A stretch of 64,000 bases of DNA from a virus (taxonomy: Duplodnaviria; Caudoviricetes): the IMG/VR virus record IMGVR_UViG_3300021256_002629, positions 64,001 through 128,000 of that record. One strand, written 5' to 3'. The translations under genes and the position numbers were made by a program. Positions 343-53,550 of the stretch are shown in pieces; position 1 is the first letter of the stretch, and every line of letters begins with the position of its first letter. A model generated the notes under the pieces. That model had not been told where the DNA came from. It ran no database searches and worked only from the letters and a program-made list of their open reading frames with translations.

Positions 343-461
343 GACTTGAGTTTAAGCAATACTCAAGTTATAAACAAAATTGCTCTATTGAGATCCTAGC
401 ATGACGGATTAAAAAGTTATGCAGTGGACTAGGTCACTTAAAAAAAGGGTTTAAGCCTAGT
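343..461 (+). ncRNA. Three tandem H-type pseudoknots
   Basis: PK1: 343-351/361-369 plus 355-360/379-384. PK2: 392-396/406-410 plus 399-405/416-422. PK3: 423-426/435-438 plus 428-434/455-461. Loop 3 is A-rich in each. Confidence 0.6.
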
Positions 462-466
462 GCGTT

Positions 467-627
467 AGCAGATGAATTGTAACATCTGCTAGGTACCATA
501 AACAGCTAGGGAGGTAGCTGTACCTATTAAAGTAGGTTTGTATGAGTCTTGGCAGCTGGCAACATGTGAACTGCAATTTATCTACTACTGATAATCATAA
601 ATCCCATAGGTAGAGTGGGTAAAATAT
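467..627 (+). ncRNA. Structured leader RNA motif, copy A
   Basis: Homologous to 1062-1214 with compensatory stem changes. Confidence 0.6.
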
Positions 628-2723: not shown

Positions 2724-2890
2724 TAAACGTGAAAATTGCAGATATATCACAGGTTTAATAGCTGGGATTCAATTGATGAAAATTCTAAAACAGTACTATA
2801 AAATTATATAATAGTACTGTTTTTTTCAAATTAAAGTGGATTCTGCATTAAAAAATTTCCGTCTGTATTCTCCCTACTTGCCTTATATAT

Positions 2891-2997
2891 GATGGATGAT
2901 GGAAAACCGTCACCACCACTATTTTGGTTTTCATGATTTTTATTTAAATTAAATTTCCCGGACTGTCTGTGAAGATCGTCCGGTTTTATTTTTTTTT
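2891..2997 (+). ncRNA. Putative sRNA 1
   Basis: Promoter 2882-2891, 5' hairpin tgatgg-aaaa-ccgtca, U-rich segment, terminator 2958-2983. Confidence 0.6.
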
Positions 2998-3063
2998 CGC
3001 TTGTAATGGGAAATTTTACATTAAAAAATTTCCGTCTGTATTCTCTCTACTTGCCTTATATAT

Positions 3064-3142
3064 GAATAAAATAAATTGATGTTTTTGCATTTTTTATATG
3101 TTTTCCGGACTGTCTGTGAAGATCGTCCGGTTTATTTTTTTT
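3064..3142 (+). ncRNA. Putative sRNA 2
   Basis: Promoter 3055-3064, terminator 3105-3130. Confidence 0.6.
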
Positions 3143-3203
3143 GCTTGTAATGGAAAATTTTACATTAAAAATTCCATCCATATTTCCTACTCCCCTTATG
3201 TAT

Positions 3204-3288
3204 GGGCATTTTTTGATTATAAATTTATATACTTTTGGTTATCATTTCTGGACTTGTCTGTGAAGATCGTTCAGTTTATTTTTTTTTT
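3204..3288 (+). ncRNA. Putative sRNA 3
   Basis: Promoter 3195-3204, terminator 3248-3274 with stem variant ctggac/gttcag. Confidence 0.55.
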
Positions 3289-3363
3289 ATTTTTTCTCTT
3301 TTACTAAGAGACCTTTATCTTATATATGTGTTATATTAATATATTAATAAATTTAAAATTATT

Positions 3364-3630
3364 ATGAAAGCAATTGCATCAAAAATTTTGTTAAAAGTTA
3401 CAAAAAAGTTTGATAATACCTGTATGCAAAAGGTTGGAACACTATTTTCTGTTCCTGTTGACCCTAAATTAGCCTACTGGGAAGCTACAGTAATTAGTGT
3501 TGGTGAAGAGGTTAAGGGAGTTAAAGAGAACGATACAGTGTTTATTTATCCAGATGCTGGTAAAGAGTTTGAGCATGAAGGCGAGAATTATCGTGTTATT
3601 ACTGCATCAGAGATTATTGTTGTTCTTTAA
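3364..3630 (+). CDS. groS: GroES-like co-chaperonin
   Basis: ATVISVGEEV..VKENDTV..EGENYRVITASEIIVVL; adjacent to GroEL. Confidence 0.8.
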   Translation: MKAIASKILLKVTKKFDNTCMQKVGTLFSVPVDPKLAYWEATVISVGEEVKGVKENDTVFIYPDAGKEFEHEGENYRVITASEIIVVL

Positions 3631-3664
3631 AATATATTTATTTATTAATTAAATTAACAAAGTT

Positions 3665-5332
3665 ATGTCAGGAAAGATTATTAAGAAAGGTTCTGTATCA
3701 CAAGAAGAGATCATTAATGGAGTAATTAAGGCTGCAGATGCTATTAAAACTACTCTTGGACCTTCTGGAAGATGTGTAGCTATTAGTAATTCAACTATAG
3801 CACAGGATCCAGAGATTACTAGGGACGGAGCTACTGTTGCTAAGTCAATCTCATTCAATAATCAGGGGTTAAATATGGGTGCTGCACTTTTACGTAAGGC
3901 TGCATCACTGACTGAATCACAAGCAGGAGATGGAACTAGCACTACCTCAGTTCTTATTAAAGAGCTTTGCGAAAGAGGAAGATCTTTAGTAAAAAATGGA
4001 GTTAACGTTAATGAAATCAAGTCTGGAATGTTGAAAGCCTCTTCTTGGGTTAAGTCTTATATCGCAGAGAAGGCTATTCCAATTGAAAATGATTTGGAAA
4101 AGATTCGAAGAGTAGCTACAATTTCTGCTAACAATGATCCAGTAATTGGTGATTTGATTGTTAGTAGTATGGAACAAGTTGGTATTGAGGGAACTATTAC
4201 AGCGGATTTAGGAGCTTCTCTTGATACTACAATTGAAGTGACTGCTGGTATGAAGATTAATCGAGGTTGGTTGAGTCCTAGTTATGTTACTTCTCAGGCT
4301 GATGCTAAATGCGAACTTTCACAGCCAGCCATCCTAGTAATTAATGAAAGACTTTCTTCTATTAAGCAGCTTTTCAAGTTAATTACTCCAGTCGCTGAAC
4401 AAGGAAAAAGCATTCTTATTATTTGTGATGAGATTGATGAGGTAGTTAATGCAGCTCTTGCCTATAATACACAAATGGGAGCTGTTCGTGCTTGTGTAGT
4501 AAAGGGCATTGATTACGGAGACAATAGAAAAAACATTATGAACGACGTAGCTATTGTTGTAGGAGCTAAATTTATCTGTCCTGAAAATAATCTTACTCTC
4601 GCAAATGTATCAGAAGTTGGTGATACTACTGTATTTGGAACGGCTGAAAAGGTAGTTGTTACAAAGGACTCTACTATTATTTACAAGGGTCATGGTAACG
4701 AAGACGAGATTAAGAAACAGGCTAGTATTATTAAAGCCCGTTTGGAAGATCCTACCATTTCTAGTTATGATAAAAATAAATTCACTAATAGACTGGCTTC
4801 TTTGGTTGGTGGTATTAGTGTAATCAGAGCTGGCGGTGCTACTGAAGCTGAGAAAGTAAATCTTAGAGCTACAATTGAAGATGCAATTTTGGCTTCTAAG
4901 AGTGCTATCGAAGAAGGCGTTGTTCCAGGTTCAGGTTATGTATACTTCAAAGCTTCTAAAGAAATCGTAAAGGATAAGAAGTTCTGGAAATCTCTAACAG
5001 GTGATGAAAAGTATGGAGTTGAGATTCTGATATCATCTCTTCCAAGTATCATGAAGACTGTTGCAGATAATTCTCGTGAAGGTTTTGGAGTTAGCGTACT
5101 TGAAACTGTCGGTAAATCAACTGGCTGGGGAAATGGGTACAATGCTAAGACCCATATTTATAGCGATTTGATCAAGGATGGAGTTCTTGATAGTGCTAAA
5201 GTTATTCGAGTTGCCCTAGAGAATGCTGTATCTACTGCGTCTATGATTCTATTAATTGATTGTAGTATTATAGATGAAGAAGAGGAAACAGACGGCGAGG
5301 GCTGTTGTGGATGTCACTGTCATAACAACTAA
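3665..5332 (+). CDS. groL: GroEL-like chaperonin
   Basis: TLGPSGR, ITRDGATVAK, AGDGTST, GVVPGSG motifs. Confidence 0.95.
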   Translation: MSGKIIKKGSVSQEEIINGVIKAADAIKTTLGPSGRCVAISNSTIAQDPEITRDGATVAKSISFNNQGLNMGAALLRKAASLTESQAGDGTSTTSVLIKELCERGRSLVKNGVNVNEIKSGMLKASSWVKSYIAEKAIPIENDLEKIRRVATISANNDPVIGDLIVSSMEQVGIEGTITADLGASLDTTIEVTAGMKINRGWLSPSYVTSQADAKCELSQPAILVINERLSSIKQLFKLITPVAEQGKSILIICDEIDEVVNAALAYNTQMGAVRACVVKGIDYGDNRKNIMNDVAIVVGAKFICPENNLTLANVSEVGDTTVFGTAEKVVVTKDSTIIYKGHGNEDEIKKQASIIKARLEDPTISSYDKNKFTNRLASLVGGISVIRAGGATEAEKVNLRATIEDAILASKSAIEEGVVPGSGYVYFKASKEIVKDKKFWKSLTGDEKYGVEILISSLPSIMKTVADNSREGFGVSVLETVGKSTGWGNGYNAKTHIYSDLIKDGVLDSAKVIRVALENAVSTASMILLIDCSIIDEEEETDGEGCCGCHCHNN

Positions 5333-5449: not shown

Positions 5450-7285
5450 ATGATGAAATTTAAAACAATCGAAGAGTTTACAGACACTTTGAGATCTTTT
5501 AGTTCAAGTGTAAAACGAGGCAGATGGTTTTTAGAAGATCTTTGTTACAGTGAGTTCGGAGAAGAAAACTGTAATAAATATTTAGTAATTACAGACAAAA
5601 AGGGTGATGATGGGATTGATGCTTATATAGTCCTTAATGAATCTGTAAATAAAACTTTCTATGCTATTCAGGCTAAATCTGGTGAAGATATTACTGAAAA
5701 GGATATAAGGTCAGATCTTACTAATGTCCTTCTTCATTATAAAGAAGCTAATTATGAAGGAACTGGCATTGGAATAAAAGCATTACGAGAAAACAAAGAT
5801 TGTACGAATTTTATATTTATCTATTTTACAACTCATCCATTATCAATCGCAGCTAAAAACGAACTTTTGGCTGTAGAACGAGAATTTAGAAATGACCCTA
5901 AACTTAGTACTAGGTTTGGAGAGAGTATTTCTATTGTTCCAATTTCAAAAGAGGATCAATTTAACCTTCAAGCAGCAAAACGAAGACTAGATTCAATAAA
6001 GTTTAGGATTCCTTCTAGTGGATTGGTTAAAGTCCCGAATAAAAATTATTATTCAGGTTGGATTACTTGTAAGGACTTAATTAACTTATTAAGCGAAGCT
6101 AAAGAGTCTACAGGTTCTCTAGCGGTCATACTTTCCGAGAATATCAGAAGTTGGTTAGAGTGGAAAACGCCTGTTAATAAAATGATAAAAGAAACTTTAG
6201 CTACAGCGCCTTCAGAGTTTGTAGAAAGAAATAATGGTTGTAATATTCTTGCCAAAAATTTACAACAATCAAATGTTCCTGGGTTTATAGAATTTACTGG
6301 ACCATCAATAGCAAATGGTGGTCAAACTGCAATGTGTATATTTCACTTTATACTAGAAAACATGTCATTGCTTGGGATAAAATCTATAGAGGAGTTTTTT
6401 GAAAAGAATATACACAACATTAACGATATTCATATTAATTTTTCAGTAAGTGATGTTACAGAAAAGACTGAAAGTAGCATTAGCACAATAATTAAGGCTA
6501 GAAATTCAACTAATGCTATGAAAGCCAGAGATTTTGCGTCTAAATCTCCATATCTCAGTGAAATTAGAAACTTATTATCCTTGTGTAATGCTAAACAAAT
6601 TGCTGGTATTAGAGGTAAAGTTCTTGATTGTGAGGTTAATAGCAAAGAATTAGATCAAGTTAAATTTCTAAGAACGATTGAGGCAGTGATGGATAAGAAT
6701 GTTGGAGCTGCTTGGAATAGTTCAGAAGAAGTTATTGTAAGTAAGCTCCCTCATTATGCTGAAATATTTATTGGGGCATATAATAAGTATGGAGAGTATT
6801 TTGTTCGATCTTTTTCAGAATTATGTAACGTTGCTTGTAAGAATAAGAAAAAACTTCCTAAATACAATATCTATTTAGGGGAGTTTATGATTAATGAGAT
6901 ATTTTATAACATTTTCAAGAATATTCCAGAAAAGAGATTCCCTAAGAAAAGAGAAGACGATTACTTTAAATATTTGTACAGTTTATTTCAGGATAGTCAT
7001 GGATTAGGAGTTATATTGGAATTGTGTGAGCATGCTTTTATTTCATACAGTGATCCAGATATGAGAGACGATGAGAATAGAACTGGAGTATCATTCTTAA
7101 TGTCTGATGCTTATGGGGATAATGTAACTGATGGAAAAAGTATAGAAAAAGCTATAAAACAGTTGAATGATCGAAATTCTTATCATCTTAAAAGATTATG
7201 TAGATTAACAGCATCTAGAGCAGACTATAGAAATGAAATAGAGGCTATTTTCAATAAGATTTTACAAGATACTGAGAAATTATAG
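5450..7285 (+). CDS. AIPR-family (abortive infection phage resistance) protein
   Basis: N-terminal GDDGIDAY..IQAK nuclease-like segment; ENIRSWL, NNG, IANGGQT and RNSTN motifs typical of AIPR. Confidence 0.75.
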   Translation: MMKFKTIEEFTDTLRSFSSSVKRGRWFLEDLCYSEFGEENCNKYLVITDKKGDDGIDAYIVLNESVNKTFYAIQAKSGEDITEKDIRSDLTNVLLHYKEANYEGTGIGIKALRENKDCTNFIFIYFTTHPLSIAAKNELLAVEREFRNDPKLSTRFGESISIVPISKEDQFNLQAAKRRLDSIKFRIPSSGLVKVPNKNYYSGWITCKDLINLLSEAKESTGSLAVILSENIRSWLEWKTPVNKMIKETLATAPSEFVERNNGCNILAKNLQQSNVPGFIEFTGPSIANGGQTAMCIFHFILENMSLLGIKSIEEFFEKNIHNINDIHINFSVSDVTEKTESSISTIIKARNSTNAMKARDFASKSPYLSEIRNLLSLCNAKQIAGIRGKVLDCEVNSKELDQVKFLRTIEAVMDKNVGAAWNSSEEVIVSKLPHYAEIFIGAYNKYGEYFVRSFSELCNVACKNKKKLPKYNIYLGEFMINEIFYNIFKNIPEKRFPKKREDDYFKYLYSLFQDSHGLGVILELCEHAFISYSDPDMRDDENRTGVSFLMSDAYGDNVTDGKSIEKAIKQLNDRNSYHLKRLCRLTASRADYRNEIEAIFNKILQDTEKL

Positions 7286-7941: not shown

Positions 7942-8145
7942 TTGCATCGGGAAAGAAAAATTGACTAAGATCGGGCCTTTCTAGTAAAAAAATTCACCTC
8001 GCTAGAATAAAGGCTGGCAACAGAAAGTAGGAGGTTAGTTTAAAGCGGAATTAAGTTTCCGCTTTATTTTTTTTTCGAAGCGGACTCTGTATTCCTTTAA
8101 AATTTTACAAAATTGCCGCTAAAATTCTGCAAAATACTTATAAAT

Positions 8146-8217
8146 GGGGATGTAGATCAAAAGTCAGATCGTAACCCTTTCAAGGTTAAGAACTGGGAGC
8201 GTTACCCAGCTTCCCTA
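8146..8217 (+). tRNA. tRNA-Glu(TTC), atypical T- and D-loops
   Basis: Cloverleaf: GGGGATG/CTTCCCT, gatc/gatc D-stem, taacc-ctTTCaa-ggtta, ctggg-agcgtta-cccag. Confidence 0.75.
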
Positions 8218-8386
8218 CAAAAACAGAAAGGGGCGTAGTTTCTCAAGGATTTATTTATATAGGATGTGTTGCCCAATCTGTTAACAAGTAATGGAATTAT
8301 TCTGTTACTTGTTTTTTTATTTTTACACACGAATTTTATCGTTTTATTTAGAGTTTTCTAATATATGTAATAATAAAATTTGAGAA

Positions 8387-52904: not shown

Positions 52905-53550
52905 ATGAAGTACAATTATCAACCAAAAGCGAAAAAGGAATTAAAGGATATTATTAAAAAACAGAACAAGTATGGTTATTTCTCTTATAGTTGCCGTTGC
53001 CGATAACGGAATCATCGGCAAGGAAAACGGGTTGCCATGGCATATTGGCGCCGACCTGAAGCGCTTTAAGGCCATTACAACGGGCCACACCATTCTGATG
53101 GGTAAGAATACCTATCTTTCTATAGGACGCCCGTTGCCTAACCGCCGCAATGTGGTGCTGAGCAGAAGCCTGACCGCTGCCGATGTGCCCGGCTGTGAGC
53201 TGATTGCCAGTTTGGACGAACTCGATAAACTGGGGTTGGAACCCGACGAAGAACTGTTCGTTATAGGCGGTGCCCGTGTGTATGAGCAGTTGATGCCCAA
53301 GGCCGACAAACTGTATCTGACCAGGGTCCGTACACAGGCCGATGGGGACGTGAAATTCCCTGAAGTGGACTGGGACGAGTGGCAGCTTTGTAGCGAGACA
53401 CACGGATTTGCAGACGAAAAAAACGATTTCGACTACTGCTTCCAAAACTATGAACGGAAGAAATGATAATGTCAAAAATGCCACTGTATGTGTTGGGAAT
53501 CTAAATTTAATGGAGACATTTCAAAATGGGCTAAGAAATCGACAGAATAA
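52905..53550 (+). pseudogene. Repeat-gene cassette shell whose interior is replaced by DHFR
   Basis: 5' remnant MKYNYQPKAKKELKDIIKK (52905-52961) and 3' remnant ..WESKFNGDISKWAKK (53493-53550). Confidence 0.85.
52972..53466 (+). CDS. folA: Dihydrofolate reductase, host-derived
   Basis: IVAVADNGIIG..LPW, MGKNTY, RPLPNRRN, VIGGA; visibly GC-rich relative to flanks. Confidence 0.95.
   Translation: MVISLIVAVADNGIIGKENGLPWHIGADLKRFKAITTGHTILMGKNTYLSIGRPLPNRRNVVLSRSLTAADVPGCELIASLDELDKLGLEPDEELFVIGGARVYEQLMPKADKLYLTRVRTQADGDVKFPEVDWDEWQLCSETHGFADEKNDFDYCFQNYERKK

Follow-up and report, generated by a model that had tools for sequence, protein, structure and literature searches.

A tandem array of candidate small-RNA genes or terminator-promoter cassettes upstream of groES-groEL in a phage from cattle gut and rumen metagenomes

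The locus studied here raises the question of whether a row of short units, each with its own promoter-like box and hairpin terminator, represents a set of phage genes for small RNAs, and whether such RNAs would act on the translation start regions of messages as a sequence-only reading of this DNA had proposed, or whether the promoter and terminator themselves are the functional parts of recombining cassettes. The DNA belongs to IMG/VR record IMGVR_UViG_3300021256_002629, and its positions 64001-128000 are called the window (the whole stretch analysed, 64,000 nucleotides), to which all coordinates refer unless a contig is named. The record is 138.5 kb long with a completeness of ~40% by CheckV, and the phage searches covered these 138 kb. 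The phage DNA is AT-rich (29-36% G+C), 144 of 163 crude gene calls are on the + strand, and the regions around the 163 called starts hold 45% A and 13% G with no Shine-Dalgarno signal.

The same DNA was present in cattle gut and rumen metagenomes from ~12 studies, and the phage also turned up in six metatranscriptome runs of this origin. The window carries a captured folA gene for dihydrofolate reductase (52972-53466, +) whose closest named homologues come from Bacteroidales and Paludibacteraceae MAGs (61-63% identity), and several metagenomic variants of it show 84-99% identity. Based on this occurrence and on the folA homologues, a weak hint in themselves, the host is probably a rumen Bacteroidales bacterium. 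The chaperonin genes 3' of the array were recognised by Pfam (Cpn10, E 2.4e-5; Cpn60, E 2.3e-55). The gene directly after groEL (5450-7285, +), a defence-type gene borne by the phage, has a 611-aa product in which an AIPR (abortive-infection phage resistance) domain was recognised (E 2.6e-25). Apart from these, a Rfam match to the Pistol ribozyme (50.8 bits against a gathering score of 34.5) was located at 423-498 (+) inside a 'twin cassette' region.

Anatomy of the array

The array (2846-3290) follows the terminator of an upstream operon and precedes the phage groES and groEL genes, which share its orientation. Each of its three tandem units combines a promoter-like box with an AU-rich segment of 40-66 nt free of open reading frames (ORFs), here called the cargo, and a common GUGA-loop hairpin followed by a T-run. 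The sequence-only reading had described three tandem units of promoter, unique segment and GUGA hairpin at this place, and sequence and repeat analysis confirmed them. The features of the region are as follows.

2331-2723, + strand: gene of the upstream operon, encoding a 130-aa Gly-zipper-like protein (Pfam hint)
2787..2828, + strand: terminator-like inverted repeat (18-nt arms, 89% complementary) and T-run closing the upstream operon
2846..2891, + strand: unit A promoter, with an A-rich/CCGT element at ~2848-2863 and a -7-type box at 2882-2891
2892..2957, + strand: cargo A, 66 nt, defined by its fold and five variants
2958..2997, + strand: unit A terminator, a 26-nt GUGA-loop hairpin (2958-2983) followed by a T-run
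3019..3064, + strand: unit B promoter, with a -7-type box at 3055-3064
3065..3104, + strand: cargo B, 40 nt, identical in four strains
3105..3142, + strand: unit B terminator, hairpin (3105-3130) followed by a T-run
3160..3204, + strand: unit C promoter, more diverged, with a -7-type box at 3195-3204
3205..3247, + strand: cargo C, 43 nt, nearly invariant between strains
3248..3296, + strand: unit C terminator, hairpin (3248-3274) with compensatory stem changes, followed by a T-run
3319..5332, + strand: neighbouring genes outside the array, with a promoter box (3319-3328), a groES-like gene (3364-3630) and a groEL-like gene (3665-5332), from Pfam and the promoter box

The units are 144-173 nt long and each has its own promoter and terminator, so that the array is predicted to consist of self-contained mini transcription units. 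The block of hairpin, T-run and promoter is repeated three times with 81-100% identity; the promoters of units A and B are 94% identical and that of unit C differs from both by ~20%. None of the units carries an ORF. A scan of the 138-kb record for the box followed within 100 nt by the hairpin and a T-run retrieved only these three units and one further match that apparently lies inside a gene. The predicted features thus reproduce the canonical plan of Bacteroidota intergenic small RNAs (sRNAs), with an own promoter, an own intrinsic terminator and no ORF.

The 10-nt promoter box occurred 30 times against 10.3 expected, was on the + strand in 27 of these cases and typically stood 20-36 nt 5' of start codons; on the - strand of the array region none was found. 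It resembles the Bacteroidota -7 consensus TAnnTTTG (PMC7366714), and each -7-type box of the array is preceded at 17-19 nt by an A-rich/CCGT element. Promoters with this element at the same distance form a subclass seen throughout the window (e.g. 7389, 8137, 8758, 11779), common to the array units, several genes, a tRNA-like gene and the groES promoter of a distant relative (L011:3060-3100), and the subclass may be a temporal class. One of its members directly precedes the tRNA-like sequence (8146-8217; Rfam tRNA 49.8 bits, not called by ARAGORN), beyond which a terminator follows after ~90 nt, and this stretch (8137-8310, +) may be a second non-coding transcription unit. Besides, six near-identical modules of terminator, promoter and 5'-coding sequence head paralogous genes in the window (44574, 45260, 49006, 53603, 57063 and 63608), evidence that this phage routinely duplicates regulatory cassettes.

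The 17-nt core of the hairpin occurred three times against 0.07 expected and nowhere outside the array in the 138.5-kb record. In the hairpin, outer and inner stems of 6 and 4 bp are separated by a 1x1 internal mismatch and capped by the GUGA loop, and the predicted energy is -8 to -14.5 kcal/mol; because of the mismatch the array hairpins were missed by a simple terminator scan. The stem of unit C differs from the others by one compensatory change from C-G to U-A, one G-U wobble and one extra loop base. Across the five natural variants of units and strains all ten pairs are kept (one compensatory and three wobble changes), giving 100% pairing against 15-51% in slid controls. No change was seen in the inner 15 nt in any unit or strain, despite the promoter divergence of unit C. 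This conservation is consistent with a selected terminator and perhaps a sequence-specific handle, given small numbers and the homogenisation of tandem copies. An exact scan for the hairpin pattern gave no match in IMG/VR or JGI metagenome contigs; its one match in GTDB genomes, in Streptomyces, was treated as chance.

Strain variation in units and cargos

Relatives were obtained by searching public assemblies for exact copies of GroES and of the 130-aa protein encoded upstream. The strains retrieved from cattle gut and rumen are ~99% identical to the window in the flanking genes, while the spacer between the 130-aa gene and groES measures 482, 640, 803 or 1011 nt and the arrays hold 2, 3, 4 or 5 units. 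The order of units was as follows, primes denoting versions of unit A.

Window: A-B-C
L004: A'-A''-B-C
L005: A'-(gap of N)-A'''-B-C
L007: A-C

Loss of unit B was seen directly in the contigs of run X2 as a clean 158-nt skip from 2997 to 3156. Overall, unit A is duplicated one to three times, unit B is missing from some strains, and the ~nine strain variants fall into three cargo families only (A, B and C). Cargo A has five variants (v1, v4-v7) with a constant 5' half, made of a small hairpin and a C-rich single-stranded run, and its copies differ by indels in the U-rich 3' half; a G/A polymorphism in the 5' hairpin leaves its pairing intact. Cargo C has three near-identical variants (v3, v8, v9), and cargos B and C are nearly unchanged in strains that differ in T-run length and promoter spacers. 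Between strains, divergence in the cargo is not lower than in the promoter spacers, with very small counts.

The cargos A, B and C are mutually non-homologous, their alignments being no better than those of shuffled sequence (P 0.59-0.87), whereas A and B have flanks of 94-100% identity, including the promoter spacer that varies freely in other promoters of this class. Near-identical flanks around non-homologous cargo mean that the cargo was swapped or inserted rather than drifted. Replacement rather than mutation is the single sense in which the segments are 'exchangeable', as the sequence-only reading had called them. Comparison across relatives therefore upheld this much of the idea, with cargo replaced inside near-identical flanks, and went against the rest of it, as only three families recur and the A copies differ by indels of the U-rich tract.

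A phage with a 69% identical GroES has no array at the same position, just a 107-nt spacer of terminator plus promoter, which points to a young, lineage-specific array. No other relatives were found by GroES/GroEL back-translation in IMG/VR, and BLAST against a phage collection gave no match. The constant 5' part of unit A had no match in metagenome contigs. A 22-nt perfect complement to it, within an ORF on the mRNA-sense strand of a 9.3-kb IMG/VR contig (L033:8874-8895), was treated as chance because ~0.1 matches of this kind are predicted by chance and the contig is otherwise unlike the phage.

Candidate small RNA genes or recombining cassettes

The units probably make short non-coding RNAs, as predicted from their layout. 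Through the canonical Bacteroidota intergenic sRNA anatomy and the precedent of the FopS family, the reading that we rate as most likely, if tentatively, is that the array, itself prone to recombination, encodes three families of phage small non-coding RNAs that act in trans; transcription, RNA ends and function are all deduced here from predicted features. In each unit a promoter of the phage's general Bacteroidota-like class would drive a short ORF-less AU-rich body closed by a strong intrinsic terminator, and the released RNAs would be ~95 nt (A), ~65 nt (B) and ~70 nt (C), with putative 5' ends ~4-7 nt past each box (near 2896, 3069 and 3209) and putative 3' ends within the T-runs (near 2990, 3136 and 3280). 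They would be produced from the + strand, early or constitutively, would share the plan of GibS and FopS (own promoter, single-stranded pairing region, terminator hairpin) and would act in trans on targets beyond the available 138 kb. The change of array size between 2 and 5 units would come from unequal recombination between the repeated terminator-promoter blocks.

Canonical intergenic sRNAs of Bacteroides are AU-rich RNAs with a transcription start site and an intrinsic terminator of their own, and their pairing takes place at translation initiation regions (PMC7366714, PMC11697453). FopS, the best-studied family, is multicopy, blocks translation at start regions that lack a Shine-Dalgarno sequence and is reported to have a copy on a Bacteroides phage (PMC11697453). 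Like the units described here, the FopS and GibS genes of Bacteroides thetaiotaomicron are stand-alone, multicopy and ~65-100 nt long, and their AU-rich, mostly single-stranded body stands between a sigma-ABfr-type promoter and an intrinsic terminator. They differ in having no sequence or structure match with the array, in being dispersed whereas the array copies are tandem, and in the part held in common, which is the 5' seed in FopS and GibS and the terminator plus promoter in the array. The conserved 5' seed of FopS (R1') pairs next to the start codons of susC-type mRNAs. Phage sRNAs such as PreS of lambda are short transcripts proposed or shown to reprogram host expression by pairing (bioRxiv 10.1101/2024.10.31.621285; PMC12197685). 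These are single genes of enterobacterial or Pseudomonas phages with demonstrated transcripts, often Hfq-dependent, while the array holds candidate genes in the phage of an Hfq-less phylum.

In favour of the sRNA reading, the promoter box is enriched, strand-biased and well placed, the hairpin is stable and fully paired in its five variants, cargos B and C are retained, and the 5' hairpin of unit A is kept by a pairing-preserving change. Against it, no target was found in the 138 kb, no RNA family matched, the array is absent from the relative with 69% identical GroES, and unit B is dispensable in some strains. Rfam gave no family match to the array, the best being BTnc201 with 25.8 bits against a gathering score of 105 bits, and no match to GibS (RF04182). 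The covariance model of FopS (RF04319, cut-off 56 bits) had no match in 2750-3360 at E up to 5; in the whole 138-kb record it gave matches of 10-18 bits elsewhere and none in the array, and the B. thetaiotaomicron control passed. Searches for tRNA and tmRNA retrieved none in the array. Metatranscriptome contigs (runs X15 and X17) extend over groES/groEL and not over the array, and such contigs cannot show RNAs shorter than 100 nt.

Other known arrays and regulators were also compared with the locus. CRISPR-like and ToxI-like arrays, with direct repeats of ~28-37 and 34-45 nt, respectively, one precursor and cas or toxin neighbours, were ruled out by units of 144-173 nt with own promoters and terminators and by the chaperonin neighbours. 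Readings of the units as boxB-like elements or as leader-peptide attenuators were rejected on unit size, own promoters and a geometry that is not conserved.

The close rival of the sRNA reading, possible and somewhat less likely in our estimate, is that the conserved terminator-promoter block is itself the functional part, shielding groES/groEL from read-through and serving as a recombination substrate, with the cargos as empty slots or remnants and any RNAs as by-products. The model for this is the PeSL (promoter-early stem-loop) of T4-type phages, a small repeated cassette of strong host-type promoter and terminator stem-loop that drives modular shuffling, and whose recombination leads to gain, loss and replacement of the intervening DNA and explains differences between near-identical phages (PMC2839356). 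The array behaves in the same manner, as it repeats a host-type promoter with a terminator stem-loop, its indels and replacements between close relatives are bounded by the cassettes, and its size ranges from 2 to 5 units among ~99% identical strains, with whole units gained or lost exactly at the repeated blocks. The non-homologous cargo within near-identical flanks fits as well. So do the single terminator-promoter spacer of the distant relative at this position and the resemblance of the start of cargo B to an ordinary mRNA leader at 1517 and to a contig of run X2 that has the same promoter and bears a gene. Terminator-promoter modules are also repeated around paralogous genes elsewhere in this phage, which indicates that such cassettes can arise without an RNA function. 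However, PeSLs enclose ORFs and lie dispersed over hyperplastic regions, whereas the array is strictly tandem at one locus of a Bacteroidota-type phage, its slots are 40-66 nt long with no ORF, and its hairpin is confined to the array. The persistence of the same three cargos across strains and the structured, invariant 5' half of unit A also argue against empty slots.

Proposed pairing at start regions and the weaker readings

The sequence-only reading had gone beyond sRNA genes and held that the unique segments are seeds antisense to translation start regions. As a sub-case of the sRNA reading, this would be a constant hairpin scaffold with interchangeable guides that pair with the A-rich starts of host genes (e.g. 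defence genes) or of distant phage genes and block translation initiation. We consider it unlikely, and it gained no positive evidence from the searches made. Its observation that no matching gene start occurs in the window holds, also over the whole 138-kb record, and when the three cargos were compared with the 138 kb by short-word BLAST, no complementary match exceeded 12 nt. The complement of the C-rich run of cargo A occurs nowhere on an mRNA-sense strand of the record, and the start contexts implied by the reverse complements of the cargos were seen in 0-1 of the 163 called phage starts.

Duplex energies were computed between each seed and the 163 phage start regions (-30 to +21), with 100 shuffles per seed and mid-gene controls. 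The best energies were -22.2 (A), -17.2 (B) and -16.6 (C) kcal/mol and the shuffled-seed means were -23.0, -16.9 and -17.9 kcal/mol, the fraction of shuffles at or below the observed energy being 0.58, 0.44 and 0.76, respectively. Pairing with the start regions was also no better than with the mid-gene controls at these 163 starts. Antisense seeds are thus unsupported, since no target was found in the 138 kb, pairing stays at the shuffled level and seed matches show no enrichment at start codons over shuffles within the searchable ~40% of the phage.

What speaks for guides is that all three cargos contain CAU followed by a U-run, a pattern found in 13% of T-rich 45-nt windows of the genome, that FopS and GibS act at start regions in Bacteroidota lacking Shine-Dalgarno sequences (PMC11697453, PMC7366714), that the cargo was replaced rather than drifted, and that the target search was confined to the ~40% of the phage in the record. 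The same pattern is, however, frequent in dinucleotide shuffles (41% for A, 22% for B and 60% for C; joint 0.055), so that the start-like look of the cargos is mildly unusual for a pattern defined after the fact. Individual units also fit poorly, as the supposed anti-start codon of unit C lies at or before the predicted 5' end, the second or first CAU is lost or moved in one C and one A variant, and the motif of unit B lies inside a predicted weak hairpin; in addition, the strains hold just three cargo families.

Less probable again is that the inner hairpin, a 4-bp stem with a GNRA-type GUGA loop, acts as a protein handle, the RNAs being decoys or sponges, or that the hairpins are conditional terminators read through with a phage antiterminator, adding promoters to groES/groEL. 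The outer stem and the unit C promoter vary, the former with its pairing kept, yet none of the units or strains shows a change in the inner 15 nt, an absence whose chance is estimated at ~0.03-0.04, and the array stands directly upstream of groES/groEL in the same orientation. This invariance is nevertheless weak evidence in strains so closely related and in tandem copies that homogenise; moreover, a separate promoter serves groES, the analysis identified no candidate binding protein, and the long T-runs suit plain efficient terminators. It is very doubtful that both ideas hold together, with a dedicated protein of phage or host using the GUGA hairpin as its handle and the replaceable 40-66 nt bodies serving as guides, which would make the array a programmable phage-borne silencing system in an Hfq-less phylum, its units gained, lost and swapped in an arms race with the host.

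Micro-peptides from leaderless + strand mini-ORFs (in unit A, Met-Met-Glu-Asn and a His run) or from - strand mini-ORFs are highly improbable: one + strand frame is kept by 9-nt and 3-nt indels in three A variants and one - strand frame in four of the five, but the frames break in other variants and stop at differing places or past the terminator, so that the A variants share no frame on either strand. Nothing comparable to these ORFs occurs in units B and C, the - strand has no promoter box here and nearly all genes are on the + strand, and conservation as promoter or hairpin DNA already accounts for the conserved parts. Three ORFs called across the array, of 69 and 36 aa on the + strand and of 41 aa on the - strand, were set aside as artefacts of T-rich sequence, because differences in T-run length between strains shift their frames.

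The feature itself is real, as candidates for phage sRNA genes or as terminator-promoter cassettes, and a silencing mechanism is putative. Post-transcriptional control in Bacteroidota operates without Hfq or Shine-Dalgarno sequences, and its mapping is only beginning. Without transcript data either outcome is modest. Should the RNAs exist and work in trans, they would be among the first small-RNA gene arrays from a large gut or rumen Bacteroidota phage. If the units are mere terminator-promoter cassettes, modular shuffling of the PeSL type would extend from T4-type coliphages to Bacteroidota-type phages. The variation in unit number and the non-homologous cargo within identical flanks offer a ready comparative handle on this locus.
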